This document shows positions 13,191 through 52,765 of a stretch of 64,000 nt of DNA, in pieces (positions within the stretch are counted from its first letter, which is position 1; every line of letters starts with the position of its first letter). The translations under genes and the position numbers were made by a program. The notes under the pieces were generated by a model, which was not told the origin of the DNA, ran no database searches, and was given only the letters and a program-made list of their open reading frames with translations. Origin of the DNA: an uncultured Lachnospiraceae bacterium (GTDB taxonomy: Bacteria; Bacillota; Clostridia; Lachnospirales; Lachnospiraceae); the NCBI GenBank assembly GCA_947632555.1, contig CANRPU010000013.1, positions 21,082 through 85,081 of the forward strand. The letters are read 5' to 3'.

Positions 13191-13219
13191 TTGCTTTTAT
13201 TTTTTCCTTCCAGTATAAT
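13191..13219 (+). promoter_or_regulatory. Sigma-A-type promoter for lacI-uxaC
   Basis: TTGCTT-N17-TATAAT. Confidence 0.7.
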
Positions 13220-13235
13220 TTCTTTAGGATTTTTC

Positions 13236-13249
13236 TGAAACCGCTTACA
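13236..13249. promoter_or_regulatory. Second LacI/cre-like operator
   Basis: TGAAACCGCTTACA lies just downstream of the plus-strand promoter and shares the GCTTACA half-site with the first operator. Confidence 0.65.
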
Positions 13250-13268
13250 TTCAGGTGCAGGGATTGAC

Positions 13269-14297
13269 ATGATGACAAATATGACGATTTACGATATTTC
13301 CGAAAAAGCCGGTGTTTCCATCGCTACGGTTTCCCGCGTTTTAAACGGCAGCAGCAGCGTCAGTGAGAAGACCAGAAAAAAAGTACTGGACGTGATGGAC
13401 CGTTACGGTTATACCCCCAACGCTTTCGCGAGAGGGCTGGGGCTCAATACCATGAAAACCATCGGTATCATGTGCGCCGATTCTTCGGATCTGTATCTGG
13501 CCAAGGCGGTCTATTACATCGAGCAGCTCCTGCGCTCCAACGGCTACGACAGCCTCCTCTGCTGCACGGGCTACGACCTGAAGACCAAAGAGCAGTCCAT
13601 GGACCTGCTCATCTCCAAAAAGGTGGACAGCATCATTCTGGTAGGTTCCAATTTTATTTACGAACAGGATTCCGACAACAAATATATCCGGGATGCCGCC
13701 GCCGAAGTACCGGTCATGCTTTTGAACGCGGTGCTGAAGGCGCCCAATGTATACAGTATCGTTTCCGACGATTACGCTTCCATGCGCGAGGCCGCCTCGC
13801 AGATGATCGCTTCCGGCAGGAAGGATATTCTCTACTTTTATAATTCCGCCTCCTACAGCGGCAGGCGCAAGCTGGCCGGTTACCGGGCCGCGATGCGCGA
13901 AGCCGGTCTGCTGCGGGAAAACGGTCTTCTGCAGTTTTACACCGGTTCCCACGAGGATATCCACGCCATGGCCGGACAGCTTGAAAAAGTAAAAAGCGAA
14001 GGCCTTTTTTTCAACGGCGTTATCGCCGCTGATGACAACCTGGCGCTTGGAGCCGTCAAATACGCCCAAAAGAACGGGCTGAAGATACCGGAAGAGCTCT
14101 CTGTCATCGGTTACAACAACTCGCTGCTCACCACCTGCTGCGATCCGGAGCTGACTTCCATCGACAATAAGCTGGAAACGCTCTGCCAGCATCTGACCGC
14201 CACGCTGATGGGCGTCCTGAACGGCGAAAAAATGCCTGAGGAAGCTGTTTTCTCCGGGGAGATCATCCATCGGGGCACCACGCTCCTGCAATCATAA
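13269..14297 (+). CDS. LacI-family transcriptional regulator (uronate locus)
   Basis: HTH sequence TIYDISEKAGVSIATVSRVLN, hinge YTPNAFARGL, and a C-terminal sugar-binding domain. Confidence 0.92.
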   Translation: MMTNMTIYDISEKAGVSIATVSRVLNGSSSVSEKTRKKVLDVMDRYGYTPNAFARGLGLNTMKTIGIMCADSSDLYLAKAVYYIEQLLRSNGYDSLLCCTGYDLKTKEQSMDLLISKKVDSIILVGSNFIYEQDSDNKYIRDAAAEVPVMLLNAVLKAPNVYSIVSDDYASMREAASQMIASGRKDILYFYNSASYSGRRKLAGYRAAMREAGLLRENGLLQFYTGSHEDIHAMAGQLEKVKSEGLFFNGVIAADDNLALGAVKYAQKNGLKIPEELSVIGYNNSLLTTCCDPELTSIDNKLETLCQHLTATLMGVLNGEKMPEEAVFSGEIIHRGTTLLQS

Positions 14298-14316
14298 TAA
14301 AAACGGAGGTAATGCA

Positions 14317-15726
14317 ATGAAAACTTTTATGGACAAGGATTTTCTACTGGACAATGACACCGCCAAAACCCTTTTTCACGATTACGCGGAAAAGACCCCG
14401 GTTTTGGATTACCACTGCCACATCAATCCCAGGGAGATCGCGGAAGACCGCAGATTCGACAATATCACGCAGGTCTGGCTGGGCGGCGATCATTATAAAT
14501 GGCGTTTCATGCGCTCCTGCGGCGTAGACGAAAAATATATTACCGGGGACGCTTCCGACAAGGAAAAATTCCTGAAATGGGCGGAGTGCCTGGGCAAGGC
14601 CATCGGCAATCCCCTGTATCACTGGAGCCATCTGGAGCTGCAGCGGTATTTCGGCTACCACGGCACGCTGAACAAGAATACCGCGGAGGAGGTCTGGGAT
14701 CTGTGCAACGCGAAGCTGGCGGAGCCGTCCATGAGCGTGCGCAGCATCATCCGCAACTCCAACGTAACCCTGATCTGCACCACCGACGATCCTGTGGACA
14801 GCCTGGAATGGCATAAAAAGATTGCGGAGGATCCTTCTTTTACCGTGAAGGTGCTTCCCGCGTGGCGTCCCGATAAGGCCATGAACATTGAAAAGCCCGA
14901 TTATCTGGACTACCTGGAAAAACTGGCCGCCGTCACGGACGTACCGGAGATCGCCACCTTTGAAGCGTTAAAGGAAGCCCTGAAAAAACGTATGGCGTTT
15001 TTCGCTTCCATGGGCTGCAACGTATCCGACCACGCGCTGGAATACGTAATGTACTGTCCCGCCTCCGAAGATGACGTAGAAGCCATCTTTCTGAAAAGGC
15101 GCAACCGCATTCCTCTTACCAAAGAAGAAGAACTGAAATTCAAGACCGCCTTCATGCTCTTTGTAGGCGAGCAGTACCACGATCTGGATTGGGCTATGCA
15201 GCTGCATTACGGCTGCAAACGCGACAACAACACCCTGATGTATGAGAAATTAGGTCCCGATACCGGGTACGACTGCATCAACAACTACGCGCCCAGCTCC
15301 CAGATGGCGGACTTTTTAAACGCGTTAAACCAAAACGACAAACTGCCCCGCACGGTGATCTATTCCTTAAACCCCCACGACAACCAGGCCATCGGCACCA
15401 TTCTGGGATGCTTCCAGGATTCCACGGCGGCCGCCAAGATACAGCAGGGCAGCGCGTGGTGGTTCAATGACCACAAAACCGGTATGATCGAGCAGATGAC
15501 CTCCCTGGCGAACCTGGGGAACCTTTCCGGTTTCGTCGGTATGCTGACCGATTCCAGAAGCTTCCTGTCCTATACCAGGCATGAATATTTCCGCCGCATC
15601 CTCTGCAACCTGCTGGGGACCTGGGTGGAAAACGGGGAATTTCCCGCGGACATGGATACGCTCGCTGAGATCGTAACGGATATTTCCTACAATAACGCGA
15701 AACGGTACTTTAAATTTCCCCTGTAG
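14317..15726 (+). CDS. uxaC: Glucuronate/uronate isomerase
   Basis: Motifs DYHCHINP, WLGGDHYKWR, TTDDP, GSAWWFND and LTDSRSFLSY.RHEYFRR. Confidence 0.96.
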   Translation: MKTFMDKDFLLDNDTAKTLFHDYAEKTPVLDYHCHINPREIAEDRRFDNITQVWLGGDHYKWRFMRSCGVDEKYITGDASDKEKFLKWAECLGKAIGNPLYHWSHLELQRYFGYHGTLNKNTAEEVWDLCNAKLAEPSMSVRSIIRNSNVTLICTTDDPVDSLEWHKKIAEDPSFTVKVLPAWRPDKAMNIEKPDYLDYLEKLAAVTDVPEIATFEALKEALKKRMAFFASMGCNVSDHALEYVMYCPASEDDVEAIFLKRRNRIPLTKEEELKFKTAFMLFVGEQYHDLDWAMQLHYGCKRDNNTLMYEKLGPDTGYDCINNYAPSSQMADFLNALNQNDKLPRTVIYSLNPHDNQAIGTILGCFQDSTAAAKIQQGSAWWFNDHKTGMIEQMTSLANLGNLSGFVGMLTDSRSFLSYTRHEYFRRILCNLLGTWVENGEFPADMDTLAEIVTDISYNNAKRYFKFPL

Positions 15727-37647: not shown

Positions 37648-39417
37648 TCACTCGCTCAGAACAAACTGGCTGTTATAGAGTTCCGCGTAAAAGCCGTTTT
37701 CCGCAAGCAGTGCGTCATGGCTGCCCTGCTCCACGATATGCCCGTCCCGCATGACCAGAATGATATCCGAGTCCATGATCGTGGAAAGCCTGTGGGCGAT
37801 CACGAAGCTGGTGCGCCCCTTCATCATGCCGGCAAAGGCTTTCTGGATCCGCATTTCCGTGCGGGTGTCAATGGAAGACGTGGCCTCATCCAGGATCAGC
37901 ATGGGCGGCAGACAGAGCATTACCCTGGTGATGCACAGAAGCTGTTTCTGCCCCTGGGAGAGGCCCTCCCCGTCCTCGGAAAGCACCGTATCATAACCGT
38001 CTGGCAGACGTTTGATAAAGCTGTGGGAATGGGCCGCTTTTGCCGCCGCGACCATCTCCTCCTCCGTGGCATCCGGTTTCCCCATCAGGATATTTTCCCG
38101 CACCGTGCCGGCCTTGAGCCAGGTTTCCTGCAGCACCATGCCGTAATTCTCCCGCAGGCTCTTTCTGGTGAGGCGCCGTATATCCGTACCGTCCACCGAG
38201 ATACTTCCTTTATCCACGTCGTAAAAGCGCATGAGCAGATTGATCAGGGTAGTCTTCCCGCAGCCGGTGGGCCCCACGATGGCCACCCGCTTTCCGGGCT
38301 CCACAAACAGGTTCAGATCCTCTATGAGCTTTTTCTCCGGCACGTAGGAAAAGGCCACGTCCTTTAATACCACCTCGCCCCGCGCGTTCTCCAGCACTTT
38401 GGCATCCTCCGGTTCCGGCGTCTGCGGCTCCTCCTCTATCAGGGCGAAGAGCCGCGCCGCGCAGGCCAGCGCGTTCTGAAACTCCGTAAACACGCCGGAA
38501 ATCTCGTTAAAGGGTTTGGTATACTGATTGGCGTAGCTTAAAAAACAGGTCAGGGTACCCACGGTCAGCCGCCCCGCGATGGCGGACAGGGCTCCGGTGA
38601 TACAGACGCCGATATAGACCAGACTGTTGACAAAACGGGTGCAGGGATTGGTCAGCGAGGAGAAAAAAGTAGCTTTCAGAGAGTATTTTCCCAGCTTTTC
38701 ATTTATCACGTCAAATCTCTCCAGCGCCTTTTCCTCATAGGAAAAAGCCTGCACCACTTTCTGGTTTCCTATCATCTCATCTATCAGAGCCGTCTGCTCT
38801 CCCCGCGTTTCCGACTGGAGTTTAAACATCCTGTAGGTGCCGCGGGCGATAAAAGCCGCCACGAACAGGCTGACCGGCGTAATACATACCACCACCAGAG
38901 TGATGCCCACGTTCTCCGCGAGCATAAACAGCAGCGTGCCGAAAATCGTAAGGACCCCGGTAAAGAGCTGGGTAAAACCCATGAGCAGGCCGTCCGAAAA
39001 CTGATCCGCGTCCGCGATGATCCTGCTGACCAGTTCCCCATAAGGATGCGCATCCAGATATTTCAGCGGCAGCACCTGTATTTTTTCAAAGGCGTCCCGC
39101 CGGATATCCTGTACCACATGATAGGCGATCCGGTTATTGCAGACGCTCATCACCCACTGGGCCAGAGCGGTGGCACCCGCCACAACCGCCATCACGCGCA
39201 GGATCGAGGCAATGGCCGTAAGATCCACCTTTCCCGCTTCCACAATGCAGTCAATGGCATTTCCCGTCAGAATGGGGATATAGAGCGTAAGGACCACCGT
39301 GGCAGCCGCGCAGACTATGGAACAGATCAAAAAGAACCGGTACCTGCCCACGTAACGCAGTACTTTTTTCATCACCGCGTACTGCCCGCCGGCAGTTTTC
39401 TTTCCGCCTTTGCTCAT
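37648..39417 (-). CDS. ABC exporter, fused TMD-NBD subunit (heterodimer partner)
   Basis: Six-TM domain, Walker A GPTGCGKT, LSQGQ signature and ILDEATS. Confidence 0.9.
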   Translation of the reverse strand: MSKGGKKTAGGQYAVMKKVLRYVGRYRFFLICSIVCAAATVVLTLYIPILTGNAIDCIVEAGKVDLTAIASILRVMAVVAGATALAQWVMSVCNNRIAYHVVQDIRRDAFEKIQVLPLKYLDAHPYGELVSRIIADADQFSDGLLMGFTQLFTGVLTIFGTLLFMLAENVGITLVVVCITPVSLFVAAFIARGTYRMFKLQSETRGEQTALIDEMIGNQKVVQAFSYEEKALERFDVINEKLGKYSLKATFFSSLTNPCTRFVNSLVYIGVCITGALSAIAGRLTVGTLTCFLSYANQYTKPFNEISGVFTEFQNALACAARLFALIEEEPQTPEPEDAKVLENARGEVVLKDVAFSYVPEKKLIEDLNLFVEPGKRVAIVGPTGCGKTTLINLLMRFYDVDKGSISVDGTDIRRLTRKSLRENYGMVLQETWLKAGTVRENILMGKPDATEEEMVAAAKAAHSHSFIKRLPDGYDTVLSEDGEGLSQGQKQLLCITRVMLCLPPMLILDEATSSIDTRTEMRIQKAFAGMMKGRTSFVIAHRLSTIMDSDIILVMRDGHIVEQGSHDALLAENGFYAELYNSQFVLSE

Positions 39418-41201
39418 CTTGTTCGCGCCTCCTTTCCCCCGTCCGCGTACTGGAACGAATAAATTTCCCGATAGATCCCGCATTCCCGCAGCAGTTCCTG
39501 ATGGGTGCCCATGCCGGCCACTTTTCCGTCATCCAGCACCAGGATCAGATCCGCGTGAAGAATGGAAGAGGCTCTCTGGGAAACGATAAAGACCGTGGGC
39601 GCGTCTTCCATGGAGCGAAGGGCCCTGCGAAGCTTTAAGTCCGTGGCGTAATCCAGCGCGGAGGCCGAATCGTCCAGGATCAGTATCCGGGGACTGCCCG
39701 CCAGCGCTCTGGCTATGGTAAGACGCTGCCTCTGCCCGCCGGAAAGATTCCGGCCGTTCTGGCTTATCATGGTTTCCAGCCCCTCCGGCTTTTCGTCCAC
39801 AAATTCCCGCGACTGCGAGATCTCCAGCGCCTTCCGCAGAGTTTCCTCCTCTATGCCCGTTCTGCCCATAAGCAGATTCTCCCGGATAGTGCCTTTAAAC
39901 AGCACCGCCTTCTGGGGTACCACGCCGATCCCGGCGCGCAGCGCGCGTAAATCCTGCTCCTGCACCGGAATGCCGTTGACACGTACGCTGCCGGCGGTAG
40001 CTTCATAAAAACGGGGGATCAGATTGACCAGAGAAGTCTTCCCGGAACCGGTACCGCCGATGATCCCTACAGTCTGTCCCTTCATGACCTTAAAATCAAT
40101 ATCCGTCAGGCTTTCCGCTCCCGCGCCGGGATAGGTCAGGCTCACATGGGAAAACTCTACCGCGGGAACGGGCATTTCCTTCGTCCCCGAAGCGGAGGCT
40201 GCCGTCCGCGGTCCCGTCAGCCCGGTCCCCCCGCGGGAAGCATCCGGCCCGTCGTTGTCCGCGGGCCGTTCCAGCACATTTTCAATCCGATGCCCGCAGG
40301 CCAGCGCCTTGTTGACGGTTATGATCAGATTGGCCAGCTTTACCAGTTCCACCAGGATCTGGGACATGTAATTGACCAGCGCCATGACCGCGCCCTGGGT
40401 CAGGATCCCTCCCTCTACCCGGAGAGCTCCCGTCCACAAGAGCCAGATGGTGCCGCCGTTGATGATCACGTAGGTAGCGGGATTCATCACCGCGGAAAGC
40501 CTGCCTACAAACATCTGCAGTTCTGTCAGGGCGCCGCTGGCTTTTTCAAATTCCCGGATCTCCTCTTCTTCCTTGTGAAAAGCCCTCAGCACTCTGACGC
40601 CCGTCAGACTGCCTCTGGCAATGCCCAGGATCTTATCCAGTCTTTCCTGCACTTTTTTATAGAGGGGGATGGTAAGCAGCATAATGCCGAAGACCGCCAG
40701 GGAGAGCAGAGGGATCACTACCGTGAAAATAAGAGCCGCCTTTACATCAATGGTAAAGGCCATGACCATAGCGCCGAATACGATAAAAGGTGAACGCAAA
40801 AACAGGCGCAGAACCATATTGACACCGTTCTGCACCTGATTGACATCGCTTGTCATACGGGTGATCATGGTAGACGTACCCATATGGTCCGCCTGCGCGT
40901 AGGAAAACCGCTGCAGATGGGAAAAAAGGGCGTGGCGCAGCTTCGTGGCGAAGCCCACGGCCGCTTTGGCGGAAAAATACTGAGCGGTAACGGAACAGGC
41001 AAGTCCTACCGCTCCCAGCAAGATCATTACCAGGCACATACGCCACACATAGGATCGGTTTCCACTGGCGATACCTATATCCACGATCCGCTTTACCACC
41101 AGGGGAACCAGCAGTTCAAAAGACGCCTCCAGCATTTTAAACAGAGGCGCCAATACCGTTTCTTTTTTATATGCTTTCAGATATACCCATAATCGTTTCA
41201 T
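39414..41201 (-). CDS. ABC exporter, fused TMD-NBD subunit with a degenerate site
   Basis: Walker A GGTGSGKT, LSGGQ and Walker B ILDDSAS (D in place of the catalytic E), typical of heterodimeric exporters. Confidence 0.9.
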   Translation of the reverse strand: MKRLWVYLKAYKKETVLAPLFKMLEASFELLVPLVVKRIVDIGIASGNRSYVWRMCLVMILLGAVGLACSVTAQYFSAKAAVGFATKLRHALFSHLQRFSYAQADHMGTSTMITRMTSDVNQVQNGVNMVLRLFLRSPFIVFGAMVMAFTIDVKAALIFTVVIPLLSLAVFGIMLLTIPLYKKVQERLDKILGIARGSLTGVRVLRAFHKEEEEIREFEKASGALTELQMFVGRLSAVMNPATYVIINGGTIWLLWTGALRVEGGILTQGAVMALVNYMSQILVELVKLANLIITVNKALACGHRIENVLERPADNDGPDASRGGTGLTGPRTAASASGTKEMPVPAVEFSHVSLTYPGAGAESLTDIDFKVMKGQTVGIIGGTGSGKTSLVNLIPRFYEATAGSVRVNGIPVQEQDLRALRAGIGVVPQKAVLFKGTIRENLLMGRTGIEEETLRKALEISQSREFVDEKPEGLETMISQNGRNLSGGQRQRLTIARALAGSPRILILDDSASALDYATDLKLRRALRSMEDAPTVFIVSQRASSILHADLILVLDDGKVAGMGTHQELLRECGIYREIYSFQYADGGKEARTR

Positions 41202-41263: not shown

Positions 41264-41935
41264 TCAGATTTTCTCACTCTTTACGGCGCCGTCCGCCAGC
41301 TCGATCACCCTGGGCATGCTCCCGGCGATCCCCGCGTCGTGGGTAACAATAATGACCGCCGTCTTAAACTCTTCGTTGATACGCGTCAGCAGTTCGATCA
41401 CTTCGCCTCCGGATCTGGCATCCAGATTACCGGTGGGTTCATCGCAGAGCAGCGCCTTGGGACGGTTCATCATAGCTCTGGCAATCGCGAAACGCTGCTG
41501 CTGCCCGCCGCTCATCTGACCTGGCAGGTGTTTTAACCTGTCTTCGATCCCCAGCGTTTTCACAATCTCATGAAACCAGTCTTTGTCCGGCTTTCTGTTG
41601 TCCAGTCTGCAGGGCAGGATAATATTTTCCTCTCCCGTCATATCCGGGATCAGGTGAAAGCTCTGAAAGATCACGCTCACATGATTTCTCCGGTACGCCG
41701 CCAGTTCTTTTTCTTTCAAGCGGTATAGATCCTGGTCCTGAAACCAGACCTTTCCTTCCTCCGGAACCAGCAGCCCGCCCAGCAGATGCAGCAGCGTAGT
41801 CTTGCCGCTGCCGGATTTGCCGGTAATGGCCGTCCTTTCCCCTTCCTCAAATTCCAGGGAAATGTCCTTGACCGCGAATACCGTATTTTCCTTATTGCCG
41901 TATTTCTTTGTCACATGCTCCGTTTTCAGCAGCAT
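41264..41935 (-). CDS. ABC ATP-binding protein (LolD/MacB/FtsE-like)
   Basis: Motifs GKSGSGKT, IFQSFHL, MSGGQQQR and CDEPTGNLD. Confidence 0.92.
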   Translation of the reverse strand: MLLKTEHVTKKYGNKENTVFAVKDISLEFEEGERTAITGKSGSGKTTLLHLLGGLLVPEEGKVWFQDQDLYRLKEKELAAYRRNHVSVIFQSFHLIPDMTGEENIILPCRLDNRKPDKDWFHEIVKTLGIEDRLKHLPGQMSGGQQQRFAIARAMMNRPKALLCDEPTGNLDARSGGEVIELLTRINEEFKTAVIIVTHDAGIAGSMPRVIELADGAVKSEKI

Positions 41936-41981: not shown

Positions 41982-42983
41982 TCACTCCGTTCCCAACTCT
42001 TCCGGGATATCTCTACGTAAAAGCGCCGTCAGGCGTTTTACCGCGAAAAGCAGCAGCGCCGCCGCTATCAGCGCGGTGACCCCGATCAGGAACCGGTGCA
42101 AAGGATAACGCCAGAAATACTGTATGGGGAAATGCCAGTACCATTCGGGAGGATACTGTCCGTTCGCATTCAGCAAATGGGTTTCCTCTATCAAATACTG
42201 GGCATACCAGGCGATCCCCGTATAACCGTAGAGCAAAAGGGCGCCGATCCCGCCGGCAAGCAGCGGATAACACAGCAGCCGTTTCAGGATCATACCCCGT
42301 ATCCGGCCGGCCGAACCTCCTGCCGCCCTTACAATGGCTGTTTTTTTCCGTCCGTTATAGAGCATGACCGTTATCAGGTTGCAGATGCTGACGCTCCCGA
42401 TGAGGAGCAGCAGTATAAACAGACTGTAAAATATCATCATGGAAGAACGGGAAACCGCACCCATATCCCGCTTTATATCCCCCAGGCAGTATCCGTTCAT
42501 CAGATCGGAAGCGGCCAGCAGAGAATACCATTTGCCCTCAAATGCTGCCCTGTCCCCATCCTTTTTCAGATTGACGTAAAAATTGGTGTAATTGTGGTCC
42601 GGCAGACCGAAAGCTTCCAGCGCGCTGAGCGTACTCGCGATCCGCACGCCGCTGTCCGGTACAGGCAGAGAGGAATAAAATATCTTCTGCCCTGCTTCGT
42701 CCGGCACCGCGATGGCGCCCACGCGGGACGGAAAGTCCTTTCGGCTCCCGAATTCATATATCGGCTCCGTTCCCTGATAAAAGGCGGGCAGCGCTCCTTC
42801 CGGCACTATCCCTGCCTGAAAGTCGGTATCTTCATCAATCTCCTTGTCGTATACCACATCAGCCAGAGGCAGCATCTCCCCCACAGTGAAGTAATCGCAT
42901 ACCGCCTCCTCCTTCGCCAGCAGGATCACTTCCTCACCGGATGCCAGTTTATCCGGATGGATCTCCCCCCGGACCACATAGGG
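41982..42983. repeat. Direct repeat block 1, copy A (partner 45515-46516)
   Basis: Appears nucleotide-identical at offset 3533. The encoded protein and the alternative-frame ORFs match in both copies, and the first mismatch is at 42984/46517. Confidence 0.9.
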
Positions 42984-44882
42984 CGCAAGCAGGGAAAGAT
43001 TCTCCTGCGCCAGAGCGATAGTGGGAGCCTGATAAACCTCCTGATCTGCGGGAAATCCCATATATTCCCAGCACATCCGATGCCTTTCTACGTAATACGT
43101 ATCATCCGGATTCCAATAATCGTTTGAGCCGCCGGACAAAAAGGCGTCTTTCTCCCCGTTTCTCTCATAGACCAGACGGGAGGAAATGTTCTCCGCGCTG
43201 AGGAAATAATCTTCCACATCCCCGCTCTCTGCCAGCGCCATGGCCGCTGCCGCGTCCAGTCCGGCTTCATGCATGGTCTGGTCATAGTAGCCGGCTGTAG
43301 TATTGCCTATGGAAATCCTCGCGTAATAGTCATAAGTATTTTCTTCGTCCGCCTTCAGTCCCAGCAGCGTAAGGCTGCTCTGCACATCGTCCGCTTCCTT
43401 CTGTGCCTGGCATCGGCAGCTGAAGTACCCGAAGCTCACCGCTCCCGTCATGAGGGTCAGCAGGAACAGCAGCCCTGCGTGCCAGCCTCCCATAAGGGAG
43501 GCTCCCAGGCCGCGCCCCCGCGATCTTCTCTTTATCCGCGCCTTTCCCCGCCCGATCATGTCCAGCGGCCTGTCGTTGATATGCCCCGCGAAATAAAAAG
43601 ACATTACCGCCGCCACCGTAAGCGCCGTCACCATCCACGGCAGCCGGGCCGGGCTGTACGTCACCATTTTGATGTACCTGCCCCAGAAACTGTCCAGGAA
43701 AAAGGCGTAGAATACCTTCTGCCCGAACAACACTTCCTGCAGCTTCAGACTGAGCGTGTAGATGCCGGCTCCAAAGAGATACCCGGCCGCCACGCCGCTT
43801 ACGAGGAACAGGAATGCCTCCAGGATGAGCATGGCAGCCACCTGCCCCATACTCATCCCCACGGCCCGCAGCGTTCCCAGCTGCACGCTCCTTTTTTGCA
43901 GCATCAGGTGCAGGACGGAATATACGGAGCAGACGGTGAGCAGGATCAAAAGTACCGTGAAACAGGGAATCAGAAAAGCGTTGTAAAAATTCAGCGTGCG
44001 GTATTTTTCGTCCGTGGTCACCGATTCATACCATTTGGAAGACAGCTTTCCGCCGCTTGGCCCGTTGTCCCTGGTCACAAGAAGCTGACCCGTGGCAAAT
44101 CGTCCATCCACGCCCCCAAAGTAAATTTCCTCGCCAAAATTTTTCTGGAGATCCGTGAGTATATCATAATAATCATAGTCCCCATTCAAATCTATATCGG
44201 CCAGAAAAATATAAGGACTTTCCGCTGTCCCCGCAAGCTGCTCCCCCTCGTTTTTTGAGAGGTAAAACAAAGGCGGAAGCACCACATCGTCCAGTTTCCA
44301 CCAGTTAGCGGTGCAGCTTCGCTGCACATACGTTCTGTAACCGTTTGTGTCCTGTATTTTCAGAATGCCGGTGAGCAGATATTCCCTCTCTTCCACAAAA
44401 CTGCCGCTTTCATCATACAGACAGAGGCTTATCTTCTCTCCGGTCCTGGCCGCGTATCCCCAGCTCTGGAGCGCCCTCTTATCCGCGCAGAGCTCTCCCT
44501 CCCTTTCCGGGTATCTTCCCTCCAGCAGAGGCAGATGAAACATATCTATGGCCAGTTCATTTTCAAAATATCCCACTCCCGCCGAAAGATCCTTTTTCCC
44601 TGCGGGGGATACGCTTCCTGTACGGTACACTTTTGAGGATTCCGTAAAGCGTGTATCCGCTTCCAGATAGGCCGCCATTTCTTTATCCGGATAATATACT
44701 CCTACATCACAGTTCCCGCTGTCATCCAGCATCGCTTCCAGCTCCGCCAGGATACTGCTGCGGCCGTAAAGGCAGGCGCAGAAAAGCCCGGCCGTAGCCA
44801 GTACGACCACGGTATAGAGCTGCAGCAGCAGGAGCTTATTGCCCAGCCAGTATTTTCTGCTGATGAAAAGAAGCGTCTTCAT
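41982..44882 (-). CDS. MacB/FtsX-type ABC permease, copy A (966 aa)
   Basis: TM, large extracytoplasmic domain, FtsX TM block (QLGTLRAVGMS), second extracytoplasmic domain, then a second FtsX block (AIVRAAGGS). Confidence 0.85.
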   Translation of the reverse strand: MKTLLFISRKYWLGNKLLLLQLYTVVVLATAGLFCACLYGRSSILAELEAMLDDSGNCDVGVYYPDKEMAAYLEADTRFTESSKVYRTGSVSPAGKKDLSAGVGYFENELAIDMFHLPLLEGRYPEREGELCADKRALQSWGYAARTGEKISLCLYDESGSFVEEREYLLTGILKIQDTNGYRTYVQRSCTANWWKLDDVVLPPLFYLSKNEGEQLAGTAESPYIFLADIDLNGDYDYYDILTDLQKNFGEEIYFGGVDGRFATGQLLVTRDNGPSGGKLSSKWYESVTTDEKYRTLNFYNAFLIPCFTVLLILLTVCSVYSVLHLMLQKRSVQLGTLRAVGMSMGQVAAMLILEAFLFLVSGVAAGYLFGAGIYTLSLKLQEVLFGQKVFYAFFLDSFWGRYIKMVTYSPARLPWMVTALTVAAVMSFYFAGHINDRPLDMIGRGKARIKRRSRGRGLGASLMGGWHAGLLFLLTLMTGAVSFGYFSCRCQAQKEADDVQSSLTLLGLKADEENTYDYYARISIGNTTAGYYDQTMHEAGLDAAAAMALAESGDVEDYFLSAENISSRLVYERNGEKDAFLSGGSNDYWNPDDTYYVERHRMCWEYMGFPADQEVYQAPTIALAQENLSLLAPYVVRGEIHPDKLASGEEVILLAKEEAVCDYFTVGEMLPLADVVYDKEIDEDTDFQAGIVPEGALPAFYQGTEPIYEFGSRKDFPSRVGAIAVPDEAGQKIFYSSLPVPDSGVRIASTLSALEAFGLPDHNYTNFYVNLKKDGDRAAFEGKWYSLLAASDLMNGYCLGDIKRDMGAVSRSSMMIFYSLFILLLLIGSVSICNLITVMLYNGRKKTAIVRAAGGSAGRIRGMILKRLLCYPLLAGGIGALLLYGYTGIAWYAQYLIEETHLLNANGQYPPEWYWHFPIQYFWRYPLHRFLIGVTALIAAALLLFAVKRLTALLRRDIPEELGTE
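43510..43985. repeat. Direct repeat block 2, copy A (partner 47037-47512)
   Basis: Identical by line-by-line reading at offset 3527. It covers the central FtsX TM block. Confidence 0.9.
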
Positions 44883-44944
44883 AAAAATCTCCCCCTGAAT
44901 GAGAAGTGCGCAGCAACATTCCCTTTCCTTTACTCCAATTATAA

Positions 44945-45349
44945 CTAGTAAACCGCATGTAGCGTTCCGGAAACGGTCATATCCAGATAAGTGGTGACAT
45001 ACACATAATAGGTTTTGCCTGCAGGCAGATCAAATTCAGCGGCCGGCACTTTCATATTACCTGGAAAAGACTGTACCGCAACTGCCGTACCGGTATCTGT
45101 CCAAGGATTTCTTATCGCAGTAGGATAAATCGCCACACGTGCCACACCGTTTCCCTGTTCGGGTTGCGTATCTACCGATACATGATATGTAGACTGCGCA
45201 GAAGCATTATAGTAACTTCCTTCGCTGAAAGTGGTTGCCGTAACGCTGTAGGGTATATCCGAAAAAGCAGTTGCCAACACCGTCATGGAAAACAGTGTCA
45301 TCACACTTACGGCGCAAATTAACATGGATATTCTTCGGAACATTTTCAT
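44945..45349 (-). CDS. Small Sec-secreted beta-rich protein (134 aa)
   Basis: Signal peptide MKMFRRISMLICAVSVMTLFSMTVLA followed by a Tyr/Thr/Val-rich mature part. The DNA is AT-richer than its flanks, and an RBS GGGGGA precedes it. Confidence 0.75.
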   Translation of the reverse strand: MKMFRRISMLICAVSVMTLFSMTVLATAFSDIPYSVTATTFSEGSYYNASAQSTYHVSVDTQPEQGNGVARVAIYPTAIRNPWTDTGTAVAVQSFPGNMKVPAAEFDLPAGKTYYVYVTTYLDMTVSGTLHAVY

Positions 45350-45439
45350 TTGATTTTCCCCCTATTCTTAAGATAGATTACGATTCCGTTTGACTGCCGG
45401 ATAAACGGCTGTGGAATCAGAAATATTGGTTACGACTTC

Positions 45440-45504
45440 AATGTATCATCTGCAGGTTTGCCTGTCAATTAATGTTAGGAATTTGTAAGGTTTTTTTAAG
45501 ATTT
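45440..45504 (-). promoter_or_regulatory. Promoter P1 with an upstream direct-repeat activator-like box
   Basis: Minus strand: AAATCTTAAAAAAACCTTACAAAT-N12-TTGACA-N17-TACATT. Confidence 0.7.
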
Positions 45505-45514
45505 TCGGAGCGTA

Positions 45515-46516
45515 TCACTCCGTTCCCAACTCTTCCGGGATATCTCTACGTAAAAGCGCCGTCAGGCGTTTTACCGCGAAAAGCAGCAGCGCCGCCGCTA
45601 TCAGCGCGGTGACCCCGATCAGGAACCGGTGCAAAGGATAACGCCAGAAATACTGTATGGGGAAATGCCAGTACCATTCGGGAGGATACTGTCCGTTCGC
45701 ATTCAGCAAATGGGTTTCCTCTATCAAATACTGGGCATACCAGGCGATCCCCGTATAACCGTAGAGCAAAAGGGCGCCGATCCCGCCGGCAAGCAGCGGA
45801 TAACACAGCAGCCGTTTCAGGATCATACCCCGTATCCGGCCGGCCGAACCTCCTGCCGCCCTTACAATGGCTGTTTTTTTCCGTCCGTTATAGAGCATGA
45901 CCGTTATCAGGTTGCAGATGCTGACGCTCCCGATGAGGAGCAGCAGTATAAACAGACTGTAAAATATCATCATGGAAGAACGGGAAACCGCACCCATATC
46001 CCGCTTTATATCCCCCAGGCAGTATCCGTTCATCAGATCGGAAGCGGCCAGCAGAGAATACCATTTGCCCTCAAATGCTGCCCTGTCCCCATCCTTTTTC
46101 AGATTGACGTAAAAATTGGTGTAATTGTGGTCCGGCAGACCGAAAGCTTCCAGCGCGCTGAGCGTACTCGCGATCCGCACGCCGCTGTCCGGTACAGGCA
46201 GAGAGGAATAAAATATCTTCTGCCCTGCTTCGTCCGGCACCGCGATGGCGCCCACGCGGGACGGAAAGTCCTTTCGGCTCCCGAATTCATATATCGGCTC
46301 CGTTCCCTGATAAAAGGCGGGCAGCGCTCCTTCCGGCACTATCCCTGCCTGAAAGTCGGTATCTTCATCAATCTCCTTGTCGTATACCACATCAGCCAGA
46401 GGCAGCATCTCCCCCACAGTGAAGTAATCGCATACCGCCTCCTCCTTCGCCAGCAGGATCACTTCCTCACCGGATGCCAGTTTATCCGGATGGATCTCCC
46501 CCCGGACCACATAGGG
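45515..46516. repeat. Direct repeat block 1, copy B
   Basis: Partner of 41982-42983. Confidence 0.9.
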
Positions 46517-48418
46517 TGCGAGCAGGGAAAGATTCTCCTGCGCCAAAGCGATGGTGGGAACCTGGTAAATACCGGCCGGATCCGAAAATCCCCTGTATTG
46601 CCAGGTCAAACGCATCCGCTCCGCCCTGTAATCGTCTACAGGTATACCTTCCGTTTTCGTATAATCCACAGAACCGCCTGCCAGGAAAGCATCTTTTTTG
46701 CCGCCGGGCTCATAGACCAGCTTGGAAGACGCGTTGACAGCGCACAAAAGATATGTTTCCACTGCCCCGTCATCCGCAAGCGTCTGGGCCCGCGCGGCAT
46801 CCAATCCATTTTCATGCAGCATCTGCTCGTATCCGAACAGGGTTTCCTGTACTCCCATTGACGCCACATATTCATACGTATCCACCTTGACCTGCTTCAA
46901 AAGATCATTCCAGGAATCTGCCTCTTTTGCCGCCTGGCACCGGCAGCTGAAGTACCCGAAACTCACCGCTCCCGTCATGAGGGTCAGCAGGAACAGCAGC
47001 CCCGCGTGCCAGCCTCCCATAAGGGAAGATCCCAGACCGCGCCCCCGCGATCTTCTCTTTATCCGCGCCTTTCCCCGCCCGATCATGTCCAGCGGCCTGT
47101 CGTTGATATGCCCCGCGAAATAAAAAGACATTACCGCCGCCACCGTAAGCGCCGTCACCATCCACGGCAGCCGGGCCGGGCTGTACGTCACCATTTTGAT
47201 GTACCTGCCCCAGAAACTGTCCAGGAAAAAGGCGTAGAATACCTTCTGCCCGAACAACACTTCCTGCAGCTTCAGACTGAGCGTGTAGATGCCGGCTCCA
47301 AAGAGATACCCGGCCGCCACGCCGCTTACGAGGAACAGGAATGCCTCCAGGATGAGCATGGCAGCCACCTGCCCCATACTCATCCCCACGGCCCGCAGCG
47401 TTCCCAGCTGCACGCTCCTTTTTTGCAGCATCAGGTGCAGGACGGAATATACGGAGCAGACGGTGAGCAGGATCAAAAGTACCGTGAAACAGGGAATCAG
47501 AAAAGCGTTGTAGAAGTTTCCCCGCAGGTATTCCCCGCTGGCAATCAGTTTTTCATACAAATTAAACCCGGGAGAAAAAGACCCGCTCGTGACCGCGGCA
47601 CCCCTGGTCAGGAGCTTAAACGCCGCTCCGCTGCGATGTCCGCCGATATGCGCATTCAGATATACCCCTTTAAATTTATCCAGCAACTCCATCTTAATGT
47701 CGGTTTCGTCATTCTCATCCGCGTAGTCGATATTTCCGAGAAAAATAAAATCCGCGCCGGATACGCCGGCAGATTTTTCTCCCTCCTCCCTTGAAAGATA
47801 ACACATCGGAGGAATATAGCTCTCCGCTTCAAACTGTCCATCCCGGTAGTGTGTCCTTCTTGTCCAGTCCCCGGTTATCCCATTGGCGGTCACCTCCAGA
47901 ACGCCGGTGAGCAGATATTCCCTCTCCTCCACAAAACTGCCGCTTTCATCATACAGACAGAGGCTTATAGTCTGTCCCGCCCTGGCCGCGTATCCCCAGC
48001 TCTGGAGCGTCCTCTTATCCGCGCAGAGCTCCCCCTCTCTTTTCGGGTATCTTCCCTCCAGCAGAGGCAGATGAAACATATCTATGGCCAGTTCGTTCTC
48101 AAAATATCCCAGTCCCGCCGAAAGATCCTTTTTCCCTGTGGGAGATACGCTTCCCGTACGGTACACTTTTGAGGATTCTGTAAATCGCGTATCCGCTTCC
48201 AGATACGCCGCGATTTCCGCATTGGGATAGGCCACGGATATGTCATAGTTCCCGCTGTCATCCAGTATCGTTTCCAGCTCCGCCAGAGTGCTGCTGCGGC
48301 CGTAAAGGCAGGCGCAGAAAAGCCCGGCCGTGGCCAGTACGATCACGGCGTAGAGCTGCAGCAGCAAGGGCTTATTGCCCAGCCAGTATTTTCTGCTGAT
48401 GAAAAGAAGCGTCTTCAT
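45515..48418 (-). CDS. MacB/FtsX-type ABC permease, copy B (967 aa)
   Basis: Same architecture as copy A. Start set at MKTLLFISRK. Confidence 0.85.
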   Translation of the reverse strand: MKTLLFISRKYWLGNKPLLLQLYAVIVLATAGLFCACLYGRSSTLAELETILDDSGNYDISVAYPNAEIAAYLEADTRFTESSKVYRTGSVSPTGKKDLSAGLGYFENELAIDMFHLPLLEGRYPKREGELCADKRTLQSWGYAARAGQTISLCLYDESGSFVEEREYLLTGVLEVTANGITGDWTRRTHYRDGQFEAESYIPPMCYLSREEGEKSAGVSGADFIFLGNIDYADENDETDIKMELLDKFKGVYLNAHIGGHRSGAAFKLLTRGAAVTSGSFSPGFNLYEKLIASGEYLRGNFYNAFLIPCFTVLLILLTVCSVYSVLHLMLQKRSVQLGTLRAVGMSMGQVAAMLILEAFLFLVSGVAAGYLFGAGIYTLSLKLQEVLFGQKVFYAFFLDSFWGRYIKMVTYSPARLPWMVTALTVAAVMSFYFAGHINDRPLDMIGRGKARIKRRSRGRGLGSSLMGGWHAGLLFLLTLMTGAVSFGYFSCRCQAAKEADSWNDLLKQVKVDTYEYVASMGVQETLFGYEQMLHENGLDAARAQTLADDGAVETYLLCAVNASSKLVYEPGGKKDAFLAGGSVDYTKTEGIPVDDYRAERMRLTWQYRGFSDPAGIYQVPTIALAQENLSLLAPYVVRGEIHPDKLASGEEVILLAKEEAVCDYFTVGEMLPLADVVYDKEIDEDTDFQAGIVPEGALPAFYQGTEPIYEFGSRKDFPSRVGAIAVPDEAGQKIFYSSLPVPDSGVRIASTLSALEAFGLPDHNYTNFYVNLKKDGDRAAFEGKWYSLLAASDLMNGYCLGDIKRDMGAVSRSSMMIFYSLFILLLLIGSVSICNLITVMLYNGRKKTAIVRAAGGSAGRIRGMILKRLLCYPLLAGGIGALLLYGYTGIAWYAQYLIEETHLLNANGQYPPEWYWHFPIQYFWRYPLHRFLIGVTALIAAALLLFAVKRLTALLRRDIPEELGTE
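47037..47512. repeat. Direct repeat block 2, copy B
   Basis: Partner of 43510-43985. Confidence 0.9.
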
Positions 48419-48445
48419 AAAAATCCCCCCTGCTCGGCTTCCGGA

Positions 48446-48482
48446 CAAAAAGGCTGTAACTCGAAATATCGGTTACAGCCTT
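48446..48482 (-). terminator. Terminator-like hairpin overlapping the start of promoter P2
   Basis: AAGGCTGTAAC/GTTACAGCCTT stem followed by a T-run on the minus strand. Confidence 0.6.
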
Positions 48483-48548
48483 AATGTATCATCGGCAGAT
48501 TTTTCCTGTCAATTCCCGCTATGGATTTGTAAGGTTTTTTTAAGATTT
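48483..48548 (-). promoter_or_regulatory. Promoter P2, homologous to P1
   Basis: The same 24-bp box (48525-48548), then N12-TTGACA-N18-TACATT. Confidence 0.7.
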
Positions 48549-48604: not shown

Positions 48605-50899
48605 TTATCGTTCATTCAGGTACAGCTGCACCCGGTTCTGCAGTATCTTGGCGGCCTGTTCCGCGCTTTGCCCGCCCTGGAAAAATCCGCTCAGTTCTTC
48701 CGCGAAGACGTCCGCCAGATCTCCCGGCAGAGCAGGGTAAGGAACACTTTCTTCATAGAGGGAGAGCAGCGTTTCCTTTACCGCTTCCCGGTCCACCTTT
48801 ATCGTCAGTTCTTCCCCGTCCACCTGATATTTCACCTCGCTCTCCACATCAGCGAGCCGGCTTTCAAACACATCCTTTCTGACGCTGAACACATCGGCGC
48901 CGTCCGCCATTTTCTCCTGCGCCTCCCTGCTAAGGAGAAATTCCAGAAAAAGGAAAGCTCCCTGCTTTTGTTCCTCGGAGGCAGAGGCCCGTATGGTCAG
49001 TATCTGATTGGGCAGAATATAATGGTGCGGGCCATCCTTGCCCGGAAAGCCGATATAATTGATATTTTCTCCCAGCATGGCGTCATAATACGCAATGGAT
49101 TCCTCTGCCAGAAGATAAACCGCCTCTCCCAGGCAGCGTCCCTCGCGCATCATGGCGATGGCCTCCGAGCGGGTGGCCGGTACGTTTCTTTCCGAAGCAT
49201 ACTTTCGCGCCAGTTCCAGCACCTGAAGAAACTCAGGACTGTCAAGATCCGCTCTGCCCTCTTCCCAATCCGCGAAAATGCTGTTTTTCAGATCCTGTAC
49301 AAAAAATTCCTCTACAAACTCTACCGGATCCTGTTCCCGGTGGATCAGCGCCAGTTCAGGATGCGCCGCCACATAATCCAGAAACTCTTTCTGATCCCAG
49401 CCGTCCATTCCGCAGGATGCGCTGGCAAAAGTATACATATGCCAGCCGATGACAATACCGTACTGTTCTTCCTCGATCTGTCCCGCGGCCATAACTTTAT
49501 CCAGCAGCGCATCGGAAAGTCCCGCCTGGGAAAGCCTGTCATCCAGATCCTCCCACAGCGTCTGATGTTCCTCAAAGGAAAGCGCCGCCGTATCCAGGAG
49601 CACAGGTCCGCTTCCCGCGTTCAGCTCTGTCAGGAGCGCGGTTTCGTCCGGATATTCCGTCATGGTCAGTATATATTGCGGATATGTTTTGTTAAATTCA
49701 GCCACGGCATTCTGATACATATTCTGATTCCACTCGGGAACCACAAAGGGAATTTCTATGATCTCTTCCGCCGCATCTCCGCAGGGCTTTAGGTACAGAT
49801 AAAAATCTTTCTGGCTGTCGGAACAGATACAGGCGATCCCGCCCTCCGGCAGCGCCATCAGCTCTTGAATCCCTTCTATACTGAACCCATGACTGGACCA
49901 GCGGTAAAGCAGTTCCGCGTTCTCAAACTCTAAAGTGCTGCGGTAAATTCCCTGTTTATCCGCGTAAAGAAGCGTTTCTCCCTCGTCAAACAACCCCAGA
50001 AACAGCAGGTCGTTCTTTGCATCCGCTTTGGCTATCAGCCTTTCTCCACCGTTTGTAAGATCAGGGCAAAGCAGGGAAGATTCACCTGCTTTGCCGCCTT
50101 CCCCGGACTTTGTCAGGGTATACAGTCCCAGAGAACCGTCCGGCAGAACGATCCAGTTTACCTGCCGGTAATCCTCCACAGCATACTGCTTTTCCCAAAG
50201 AGTTTCTCCGTCCGCGTTCACTACCTTGTATACAGGGGGTAAGTTTTCGTCTTCCGGTTCAAAACGGAAGGCTATGTTTCCAAAGCGATCTCTCTGCAGG
50301 TCAAAATATCCCGTCCCCGGCTGCTCCAGGCTGCCCGTAAGCCGCATTTCCTCATCCAGAAGCAGGATCTGAACTTTCTTTTCCTCGTCCGCGCTCTTAA
50401 AACCGTAAGCCGACAGACAGTATCCTCTTCCCGGCGCTCCGCCTCCCATAACGAGCCCCATACCGGGCGCTCCGTAATCGTGGGCATCCAGTTCCTGAAC
50501 ATCATAGCTGCCGTCCGGCCCCGCCAGATAAACCCAGGTCTTGCGCTTATCCGCATCATCGGAGAACCATTTGTCAAAATATCCTCCCACGCCGCCGGCA
50601 AGGAAAAAATTCCCGGATCTGCCGGTAAGTCCTTCCGGTTCCTGCAGTGTTATCTCCGTCTTCACCGCCGCGTAATAAACATCTGCGTTATTGTCTTTCC
50701 ATACGGATACGGTTTCATCGTCTTTTTCTCCGGGTCCTCTTTCCGCGGCCGTTTCCGGCGCGGACGTATCGGGAACCGTCGATTCCAAAGCCGCTGACTC
50801 CTTTTGTGCCGGCTCCTGACCGCAGCCGGAGGCAAACAAGCCAAGGCACACGCCTGCTGTGGCGTAAAACAAGAAGTACTTTTTCCGTATCCAGTCCAT
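48605..50899 (-). CDS. Large lipoprotein with a C-terminal solute-binding-protein-like domain
   Basis: Lipobox LFASGC. The C-terminal part has SBP-like motifs (AVAEFNKTYPQY, GAFLFLEFLLSREAQ, AAKILQNRVQLYLNE). Confidence 0.75.
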   Translation of the reverse strand: MDWIRKKYFLFYATAGVCLGLFASGCGQEPAQKESAALESTVPDTSAPETAAERGPGEKDDETVSVWKDNNADVYYAAVKTEITLQEPEGLTGRSGNFFLAGGVGGYFDKWFSDDADKRKTWVYLAGPDGSYDVQELDAHDYGAPGMGLVMGGGAPGRGYCLSAYGFKSADEEKKVQILLLDEEMRLTGSLEQPGTGYFDLQRDRFGNIAFRFEPEDENLPPVYKVVNADGETLWEKQYAVEDYRQVNWIVLPDGSLGLYTLTKSGEGGKAGESSLLCPDLTNGGERLIAKADAKNDLLFLGLFDEGETLLYADKQGIYRSTLEFENAELLYRWSSHGFSIEGIQELMALPEGGIACICSDSQKDFYLYLKPCGDAAEEIIEIPFVVPEWNQNMYQNAVAEFNKTYPQYILTMTEYPDETALLTELNAGSGPVLLDTAALSFEEHQTLWEDLDDRLSQAGLSDALLDKVMAAGQIEEEQYGIVIGWHMYTFASASCGMDGWDQKEFLDYVAAHPELALIHREQDPVEFVEEFFVQDLKNSIFADWEEGRADLDSPEFLQVLELARKYASERNVPATRSEAIAMMREGRCLGEAVYLLAEESIAYYDAMLGENINYIGFPGKDGPHHYILPNQILTIRASASEEQKQGAFLFLEFLLSREAQEKMADGADVFSVRKDVFESRLADVESEVKYQVDGEELTIKVDREAVKETLLSLYEESVPYPALPGDLADVFAEELSGFFQGGQSAEQAAKILQNRVQLYLNER

Positions 50900-50989
50900 A
50901 TCATATCCCCCTCGTATAATATCTTTTAGATACAGTAAATGTACCTTGATAACTTAATAAATCTTTGTTCAATAGGCTTAGTAAAGCCC

Positions 50990-51260
50990 ATGATATAATT
51001 GTCCTTAGTGTCAATCAGGTAATAGTTCTTTTTCCCCCTGTTGAACCAGTAATGGCTGCTTCAGAGATAGTCTGTTCCCCTGACACGGAAGTTAGCTTCA
51101 AACCGGCTGGCTGTTTGCTTAAGTGCATGGACGACCATCTTGCAGTGTGGTTCCGCATCTGTCCATCTTAAGCCGGATTCTTATATGCGAGGGTGTCGAT
51201 GCTCCGTGATCATGGGTTTTTCCAAGCCGATTGAACACTCATATCCAACATAGAAAGAAG
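50990..51260 (+). ncRNA. Candidate IS110 bridge RNA (5' non-coding end)
   Basis: About 300 nt of non-coding sequence upstream of the transposase, with nested stems (TCAATCAGG/CCTGTTGA, CCGGCT/AGCCGG, ATGGAC/GTCCAT). Inferred from IS110 family biology. Confidence 0.45.
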
Positions 51261-51268
51261 GTGATATC

Positions 51269-52495
51269 ATGAACCCACTTTACGTCGGTATTGATGTCAG
51301 CAGCAGATCCAATGTCGTATACCTGATGCTTCCTAACGGAGATAAGCACAGTAACTTTGAATTAAAAAACTCACATGATGGCTCCTCTCAGCTTGTGAAA
51401 AGAATTCTTTCTGCCATGACTTCTCATTCCCTTGACACGGTTCTGATCGGTCTCGAAGCAACCTCTGTTTATGGAGACAATCTCGTGTACTTTCTAAGGG
51501 AAGATGCCACTCTGGCACCATTTAACAGAAAGATTCATGTCCTCAATCCTAAGCAGGTAAATAAGTTCAAAGAATCTTATAATGACCTGCCTAAGAATGA
51601 TTATGTGGACTCTTTTGTCATTGCTGACTGCCTGCGTTTCGGTAGAATCAACAAAGAGGTATATATCGGGGACTATCGTTACAAAGCCCTCCAGAACCTT
51701 ACAAGGGCACGTTTCTTCGCCGTCCAGAACCTCATCAGGGAAAAACAGCGTTTCATCAATGTCCTGTTCAAGAAGTATTCTACGATGACGCAGGAGAAGG
51801 TATTTACTGATACCTTCAGCACTACAGCCTTAGCCGTCTACGAAGAGTTTGAATCCGCAGAAGCATTGGCCTCGATGGACTTACAAGAACTTACGGACTT
51901 CATTGTGGAAAAAGGGAAGAACCGCTTCCCTGATCCGGATGCCGTAGCCAAAGCCATCCAGAAAGCTGCCAGAAGTTCCTACCGTTTGCCTAAGACGGTA
52001 AATGACTCCGTTAATCAGGTGCTTTCTATATCCATAACCTCAATAAAGGCATTGGATGCTCAGATCAAAGAGTTCGATAAAGCAATCGCTGCCCAAATGG
52101 AACTCTTACCAAACGTATTGATATCTATTCCAGGCATTGGTCCTGTATTCTCAGCCGGTATCATGGCTGAAATCGGCGATATCAATCGTTTCGGGAACCA
52201 TGCCCAGCTTGCTAAATATGCAGGTCTTGCATGGAAACAACATCAGTCCGGAAGTTTTGAAGCCCAGACAACAAGGCTTATAAATTCCGGTAACCGCTTT
52301 TTAAAGTATTATCTGTGTGAAGCAGCTTTCTCCCTTGTAAGATGCGACAAGGAATACAGCGACTTCTACCACCTCAAATACAAAGAGGTGAACAGATATC
52401 AACATAAACGTGCACTCGCATTAACTGCCCGTAAATTTGTGCGGTTAGTCTTTCGACTGCTGAAAGACAATCGACTATATCGAGCAGCGGAATAG
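51269..52495 (+). CDS. IS110-family DEDD transposase/recombinase
   Basis: Motifs YVGIDVS, GLEATSVY, KNDYVD, IPGIGPV and LAKYAGL...QSG. Confidence 0.95.
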   Translation: MNPLYVGIDVSSRSNVVYLMLPNGDKHSNFELKNSHDGSSQLVKRILSAMTSHSLDTVLIGLEATSVYGDNLVYFLREDATLAPFNRKIHVLNPKQVNKFKESYNDLPKNDYVDSFVIADCLRFGRINKEVYIGDYRYKALQNLTRARFFAVQNLIREKQRFINVLFKKYSTMTQEKVFTDTFSTTALAVYEEFESAEALASMDLQELTDFIVEKGKNRFPDPDAVAKAIQKAARSSYRLPKTVNDSVNQVLSISITSIKALDAQIKEFDKAIAAQMELLPNVLISIPGIGPVFSAGIMAEIGDINRFGNHAQLAKYAGLAWKQHQSGSFEAQTTRLINSGNRFLKYYLCEAAFSLVRCDKEYSDFYHLKYKEVNRYQHKRALALTARKFVRLVFRLLKDNRLYRAAE

Positions 52496-52765
52496 TTATC
52501 TATTCCTGCTGATGAATGCCCTGCTCAAAAAGCAGATAACGCAGGGTTTGTTAAAGTTACCCTTTTTTCAGCAAATGATATGAAAACAACTCAAAAACAA
52601 TTTCAATTTACTCTTGACATATCACCGCTGGACTATTCCTATCATAATGAACTATTGTCCGCATATATGCCCATGCTGACCGGCATAAACTGTTACTGTT
52701 TTTCCCGAGTTTAAATTTCAAAAATAGTCATGAACTTGTCCGATCCCGCGCTTCCCGACAGTATC

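Follow-up and report, generated by a model that had tools for sequence, protein, structure and literature searches.

Concerted evolution of gene copies is exemplified in bacteria by the tuf and rRNA genes, and antigenic variation from silent cassettes by pilE/pilS of Neisseria. Interlocus gene conversion that leaves islands of divergence has been described for tandem lipoprotein paralogues in a bacterial species (PMC2568036) and for mammalian TLR1/TLR6 (PMC2077338), and further cases of interlocus conversion include the GOT1 paralogues of Tigriopus (PMC3728101) and a model for HMA4 (bioRxiv 10.1101/2025.10.29.685298). Among ATP-binding cassette (ABC) systems, Escherichia coli YbbAP consists of YbbP, a fused double-FtsX permease, and the ATPase YbbA (PDB 9ge6/9ge7; PMC12646458). 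"Duplicated" fused permeases within the Type VII ABC superfamily, whose members typically have an extracytoplasmic partner as their target or intermediary, were described in the same work (PMC12646458). In this study, a stretch of 64,000 nucleotides from an uncultured Lachnospiraceae bacterium (assembly GCA_947632555.1, contig CANRPU010000013.1, positions 21,082 to 85,081), hereafter the window, was analyzed for two tandem permease genes, designated A and B. We interpret A and B as paralogues subject to interlocus gene conversion by homologous recombination, with two variable segments, V1 and V2, left as islands of divergence, and give this interpretation a probability of roughly 85%.

The locus resembles the known cases of interlocus conversion in having direct repeats spaced by a few kb, exact tracts next to deeply diverged segments, paralogues closer within a genome than orthologues between genomes, strain-polymorphic tracts and copy-number changes by unequal crossover. 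It differs from them in that what is converted is a Type VII ABC permease gene, that the islands match sub-domains of two ectodomains, and that the specific segments of one paralogue have apparently moved recently between species. Mosaic divergence of paralogues through interlocus conversion is already well known; this locus is a well-resolved case in an uncharacterized Type VII branch and a compact illustration, from nature, of how the paralogues of a bacterium evolve in concert.

Mosaic structure of the permease genes

Both genes are on the minus strand. Permease A (41982-44882) is an open reading frame (ORF) of 966 aa, and permease B (45515-48418) is one of 967 aa when counted from its ATG; an alternative TTG start 30 nt upstream of this ATG would give 977 aa. 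Each contains two PF02687 stretches. B corresponds to NCBI protein P0169, and an exact-protein look-up of A in the contig index returned no record. Both copies were judged from assemblies, namely the window and independent metagenome assemblies.

DNA alignment of A and B reproduced almost to the base the mosaic described in an earlier note on this DNA: a similar N-terminus, V1, a 476-nt identical block, V2 and an identical C-terminus of about 1 kb. The N-terminal ~520 nt were ~93% identical. V1 (43986-44362 in A, aa ~173-309; 47513-47898 in B) showed 45–55% DNA identity between the copies, with nonsynonymous (dN) and synonymous (dS) divergence of 0.74 and 1.57, respectively. It is followed by an exact block of 476 nt encoding transmembrane (TM) helices TM2-TM4 (43510-43985 in A; its twin in B at 47037-47512). 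V2 (~43020-43410 in A, aa ~501-636; ~46553-46940 in B) was 55–65% identical, with dN 0.41 and dS 1.30; as for V1, its extent in B was taken from the DNA alignment and dS against A. The last block, encoding the rest of ectodomain 2 and TM6-TM8, was identical over 1002 nt through the stop codon (41982-42983 in A, 45515-46516 in B), and near-identity ran 12 nt further.

When the 446 differing columns of the A/B alignment were shuffled 10,000 times, the longest identical run averaged 40 nt and never exceeded 91 nt, as compared with the exact runs of 1002 and 476 nt observed. By the Nei-Gojobori method, the dS values were 0.22 (N-terminus), 1.57 (V1), 1.30 (V2) and 0 (C-terminal third). The contrast between segments is therefore one of synonymous sites, and chance falls far short of explaining it.

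Concerted evolution of the TM block

Informative contigs with related loci were retrieved by exact-protein look-ups, and those of a sister species (L005, L006, L010, L033-L036) also carry B and A in tandem. The paralogues of L005 shared an exact run of 514 nt across the TM block, the maximum after shuffling being 59 nt. The TM block was 100% identical within the pairs of the window, L005 and L036, and 79–93% identical between the window and L005; the blocks of L005 and L036 differ from that of the window by 8–20%. Single-site comparison showed that each of these three pairs carries lineage- or strain-specific TM-block variants in both copies. In trees, the TM block grouped by lineage and V1 and V2 grouped by type. 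The TM blocks of the L033 and L034 pairs (12.7x coverage) differed at 15–20 sites and are partly homogenized; assemblers can therefore hold two such copies apart.

Because identity of the TM block is higher within genomes than between them, and the variants are lineage-specific, these results indicate that the TM block evolves in concert and was homogenized independently in the window and sister lineages. The suggestion of the earlier note that gene conversion, instead of duplication plus drift, shaped the pair was borne out by this concert in two species together with a strain-polymorphic C-terminal tract (see below). Comparison with related loci also showed that the paralogues are not uniformly diverged, the L005 and L036 pairs being identical in the TM block.

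Probable conversion of the C-terminal tract and variation in copy number

In the sister species, the C-terminal third was 51–90% identical between paralogues. Two further diverged ectodomain patches, V3 (aa ~686-735) and V4 (aa ~809-832), are visible only in relatives. V1 to V4 were placed by topology and secondary structure, not on model coordinates. The C-terminal block of permease A is of the a type, as judged against L005_2 and L010_2, and its haplotype is V1a-V2a-V3a-V4a. Permease B of the window has the haplotype V1b-V2b-V3a-V4a, its V3 and V4 being 97–99% identical to those of A orthologues (L005_2). The B orthologues P0002, P0003, L007 and L015, on the other hand, carry V3b and V4b and are 50–53% identical to the window's block. 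Since B carries a-type V3 and V4, at least 1 kb appears to have been copied from A to B in the lineage of the window, with the block at 45515-46516 as the recipient.

Public assemblies show the locus in three states, with B converted, with B unconverted, or as a haplotype with a single permease copy. The converted allele was found in L011, L013 and L014 (~30x coverage in two), in which converted B is followed by a promoter-like site (P'), a small gene (orf134) and A, with 7–18 differences from the window. The unconverted allele was seen in L015, where B with native V3b and V4b lies upstream of orf134 and A as in the window. In at least 6 Logan runs (L007-L009, L025, L026 and L029), unconverted B was the sole permease, with the ATPase gene directly after it and flanks ~99% identical to those of the window; the change in copy number that had been anticipated was thus found between the same flanks. 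The single-copy B has a-type patches between V3b and V4b and shows 21 differences from B of L015 in 1464 nt. On account of these patches and this near-identity, the single-copy haplotype was probably derived from an ancestor with two copies through an unequal crossover within their shared C-terminal end. The robust ectodomain combinations of B were V1b-V2b-V3a-V4a and V1b-V2b-V3b-V4b.

Exchange between lineages

The A-specific segments of the window and the sister species were 95–99% identical, with dS of 0.03–0.10, as against dS of 0.26–0.7 or identities of 78–92% for the B-specific segments, the TM block and the flanks. Since similarity of the A-type segments is higher than that of the flanks, recent transfer of A-type DNA between co-occurring species is indicated. 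In each genome, the shared blocks of A carry resident sequence. The A-type segments compared were window positions 42186-44585 and L005 positions 13208-15607. Both species occur in samples of the ERZ272491xx-4xx series.

Proposed mechanism

Ordinary homologous recombination between direct repeats suffices for the events proposed here. V1 and V2 would hold old divergence. Where the copies have stayed alike enough for strand exchange, non-reciprocal homologous recombination would overwrite one with the other, presumably in a RecA-dependent manner. The central TM2-TM4 block would have been homogenized separately in each lineage, and B of the window's lineage would have received the C-terminal third of A, with V3 and V4, as a tract of at least 1 kb. 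Unequal crossing-over between the repeats probably gave the single-copy haplotype. At ~50% identity, V1 and V2 would be unable to pair and so would persist as islands, and selection may also retain two ectodomain specificities. The dependence on RecA, and the direction and order of these events, are what we infer from the patterns described above.

A tentative and rather unlikely extension is that V1 to V4 and the dimorphic orf134 are co-evolving specificity modules of a Type VII ABC mechanotransmission system, recognizing for example a polymorphic extracellular partner, a bacteriocin-like factor or a phage. If this were true, recombination between the tandem permeases and between co-resident species would be a population-level source of selected ectodomain combinations, such as V1b-V2b-V3a-V4a.

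Alternative explanations

An improbable alternative is that the mosaic came mainly from imported DNA, by allelic replacement from other strains or species, and not from exchange between the resident copies. The window and L005 are 95–99% identical in the A-specific segments, as against only 78–88% in the flanks, and the first 180 nt of window A are closest to the B copy of L005 (98%), both of which fit import. Import, however, cannot make resident copies identical to each other yet unlike every other lineage, and this is what was found in the TM block of the window, L005 and L036, each pair with its own lineage-specific variants. A and B of the window likewise agree throughout the C-terminal tract, including a patch at alignment columns 2701-2760 that B of L011 lacks. 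That a recent duplication was followed by rapid positive selection limited to V1 and V2, with no gene conversion, is extremely unlikely. The long branches of V1 (both types) and V2 (A type) in segment trees would agree with it, but the synonymous sites of V1 and V2 are saturated (dS 1.1–1.6) while dS is 0 next door, the identical tracts differ by lineage (TM block only in the sister species, TM block and C-terminus in the window), and both V types are older than the species split. An assembly artefact is very unlikely as well, be it repeats collapsed into identical blocks or two strain alleles joined into a chimeric tandem. The genome is a draft of 42 contigs, a 1-kb exact repeat is hard for short reads to span, and both species co-occur in samples of one study. 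Against this, the unique junction running from the B C-terminus through P' and orf134 to the A N-terminus recurs at 99.4–99.97% identity in no fewer than 5 independent assemblies, of which three have ~30x coverage, and the junction together with the A-type C-terminus of B was found in L011, L013, L014 and L016. Collapse, or polishing, was rejected as the origin of the a-type V3 and V4 of B, which differ by ~50% from the b type; the regions of P' and of P, the similar site upstream of B, are only ~85% alike, so that no graph path joins them. Contigs also break at the TM block (L011-L013) and within the C-terminal block, ~55–65 nt short of its end (L023, L024, L027 and L028), as true repeats would cause, and slightly different TM blocks were kept separate by the assemblers in L033 and L034. 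Such loci break or chimerize short-read assemblies, which calls for caution in assembly and annotation.

The earlier note had also raised the possibility of a recombinational receptor-shuffling cassette, that is, a programmed system that frequently yields V1/V2 chimeras and changes in copy number. This is quite improbable. As in silent-cassette variation (Neisseria pilE/pilS), shufflons and diversity-generating retroelements, variable surface segments lie between constant blocks able to guide recombination; haplotypes vary in V3/V4 content and copy number, the variable parts are extracytoplasmic, and the neighbouring secreted orf134 product is also dimorphic. Unlike in those systems, both A and B are complete, promoter-associated genes with no silent cassettes, and no dedicated recombinase, G-quadruplex (G4), invertase sites or reverse transcriptase were seen in the searches described next. 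The repeats are direct; a search for inverted repeats yielded nothing meaningful, those present being imperfect and of 28 nt or less. The only recombinase seen nearby is an IS110 transposase 3 kb away, which is absent from the sister locus with the same mosaic, and none other than IS110 was seen by Pfam in 8 selected proteins or by eye in the other ORFs at 30–58 kb. Hypervariability is also lacking, since each V segment has only two stable types, each 95–100% conserved across strains and species, and 11 of 11 full-length robust sequences keep V1a-V2a or V1b-V2b. The predicted chimera of V1 from B and V2 from A was met in one contig only (L017, 3x), possibly an assembly chimera through the identical blocks. 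This contig and L032 (1.8x; V2a-V3b-V4a upstream of P') were not accepted as proof of chimerism, because coverage gaps at 1.8–3x favour false joins and the switches fall where A and B share sequence. The notion of a dedicated cassette is thus not supported, with neither a dedicated recombinase nor meaningful inverted repeats seen in these searches, no silent copies, and only two conserved V types.

Several points nevertheless weigh against interlocus conversion as we propose it. De Bruijn assemblers may collapse near-identical repeats, so that an identity given as 100% may in truth be at least 98–99%, and such collapse may inflate some of the strain-specific co-variation in the TM blocks. The mosaic also bears the mark of recombination between lineages, and imported DNA, instead of the neighbouring copy, may be the source of some patches. 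The dN/dS ratios of V1 and V2 were 0.3–0.5 for whole segments with saturated dS, giving no positive sign of selection maintaining the islands. Finally, that B is expressed and uses the ATPase encoded after A is presumed.

Protein family, fold and topology

A Pfam scan of 8 selected proteins, the two permeases among them, assigned PF02687 to A and B (E 5e-19, two stretches each) and did not report MacB_PCD (PF12704) in either at E ≤ 0.01. PF12704 was found only in the very distant matches P0012 and P0013, this domain being typical of the family and not obligatory. Hydropathy analysis placed 8 TM helices at residues ~17–37, 302–322, 348–374, 414–435, 471–490, 821–840, 865–887 and 931–950, in a 1+3+1+3 layout with loops of ~260 aa after TM1 and ~325 aa after TM5. 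An AlphaFold2 model of permease A, built with 55 homologues obtained by phmmer from 1.84 billion representatives, had a mean predicted local distance difference test score of 83 and a predicted TM-score of 0.77, and showed long stalk helices and mixed alpha/beta ectodomains. According to topology and this model, V1 comprises the C-terminal half of ectodomain 1 together with the stalk leading to TM2, and V2 corresponds to the N-terminal half of ectodomain 2. Hydropathy and the model accordingly agree with the earlier proposal that both segments are extracytoplasmic; the allele-specific recognition proposed there would be a possible role.

Foldseek matched the model to YbbP (9ge6, E 4.6e-17, the best match), MacB (5gko, 8.6e-10), LolE (7arh, 1.7e-9) and BceB (7tch, 2.6e-9). 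This agrees with a profile search of PDB sequences, in which LolF, MacB, YtrF, LolE and BceB matched both halves. Based on the Pfam, topology, structural and profile matches, A and B are fused double-FtsX permeases of the Type VII (mechanotransmission) ABC superfamily, similar to YbbP and MacB. They share with YbbAP and other Type VII systems (MacB, LolCDE, FtsEX, BceAB, HrtBA and YtrEF) a large extracytoplasmic domain after the first TM helix of each module and a separate LolD/MacB-like ATPase, the two FtsX modules being fused as in YbbP; in this superfamily a partner protein is also often encoded nearby. They differ in that identity to these proteins is only 9–15% and whole-chain TM-scores are ~0.35–0.4, that two alternative permease genes are present per ATPase gene, that the host appears Gram-positive-like, and that PF12704 was not detected. 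Each permease would be a complete pseudo-dimer, so that the same ATPase dimer would associate with either A or B, which differ in their ectodomain surfaces.

Distribution and related loci

A search of 5.8 billion proteins yielded only about 11 close clusters. No relatives were detected in 36 genomes of the same genus and 24 of the same order (E ≤ 1e-20), a search of 400 genera of the family gave two matches at 26% identity, and a pattern scan of GTDB species representatives and JGI metagenomes revealed no related loci. These permeases thus form a rare, uncharacterized Type VII ABC branch, in which V1 to V4 and the small secreted neighbour are flagged as candidate specificity determinants.

Distant relatives (L021, L022 and L031; 46–60% identity) have one permease and an ATPase, which argues that one copy is the ancestral state. 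In L021, the single permease is at the same syntenic site (GlnA-ANTAR-DapF-DUF3592). In the sister species, B and A are only 6 bp apart, with neither orf134, the solute-binding protein (SBP) gene nor IS110, and the flanks have the same synteny as the window at 78–88% identity. In every segment tree, A and B were sisters with respect to the outgroups P0004-P0011. The duplication is specific to the lineage that includes the window and the sister species.

Neighbouring genes in the window

On the minus strand, the gene order is SBP lipoprotein, P, leader hairpin, B, P', orf134, A, ATPase and two unrelated ABC exporter genes. The single ATPase gene of the LolD/MacB/FtsE type, located after A (41264-41935, minus strand), encodes 223 aa with PF00005 (E 3e-37); its best NCBIfam matches were LolD (E 8e-64), FtsE, MacB and YbbA, all under the equivalog cut-offs. 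No ATPase gene is present directly after B, and one ATPase presumably serves both permeases.

Upstream of B is the promoter-like site P (48483-48512, minus strand; TTGACA, 18 nt, TG-n-TACATT). P' (45440-45468, minus strand) lies upstream of orf134-A-ATPase in a ~100-nt copy of the P region, with 85% identity across 48 nt. A leader hairpin followed by a U-run (48450-48481, minus strand), with a 13-bp stem (free energy −25.5 kcal/mol, z −3.7), was observed between P and the start codon of B. This hairpin, within 48419-48482, is a candidate attenuator; the P' leader of orf134 has no hairpin.

The B-A spacer contains orf134 (44945-45349, minus strand), predicted to encode a small secreted beta-sandwich protein with a signal peptide and 8 strands. 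It had no match in Pfam or NCBIfam, and a fold search returned only generic beta-sandwich/jelly-roll matches (E ≥ 4e-4), from which no function could be assigned. Just two homologue clusters are known, in L031 (948-1343) and L032 (1631-2023). The L031 homologue is directly upstream of the single permease and ATPase, an arrangement suggesting that a small secreted protein, a permease and an ATPase are an old unit. In the L032 allele (1.8x coverage), the P' leader and signal peptide are almost identical to those of the window and the mature part is 52% identical. The two forms have the appearance of allelic dimorphism in what may be a partner protein, and by analogy with Type VII systems orf134 is a candidate extracytoplasmic partner.

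The gene upstream of B (48605-50899, minus strand) encodes a lipoprotein of 764 aa with a C-terminal SBP_bac_8 domain and an N-terminal half to which no assignment could be made. The IS110-family transposase gene identified by the Pfam scan (51269-52495, plus strand) lies ~3 kb from the permeases. Relative to the sister locus in L005, window positions 48605-52600, containing IS110 and the SBP lipoprotein gene, are extra DNA between the DUF3592 gene and B. The composition profile of the window showed no anomaly.

After the ATPase gene, two ORFs (37648-39483 and 39414-41201, minus strand) encode exporters with ABC_membrane and ABC_tran domains. The longest ORF of the second overlaps the first by 70 nt; in relatives its product is called at 589 aa, and the real start of the second exporter is probably further downstream. 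A glycoside hydrolase family 36 (GH36) alpha-galactosidase is encoded downstream, with a longest ORF in the window of 735 aa from the first TTG. The corresponding gene is one ORF of 729 aa in L024 and two ORFs of 71 and 655 aa in L023 (4503-6692), where the split is likely a frameshift or a low-coverage error.

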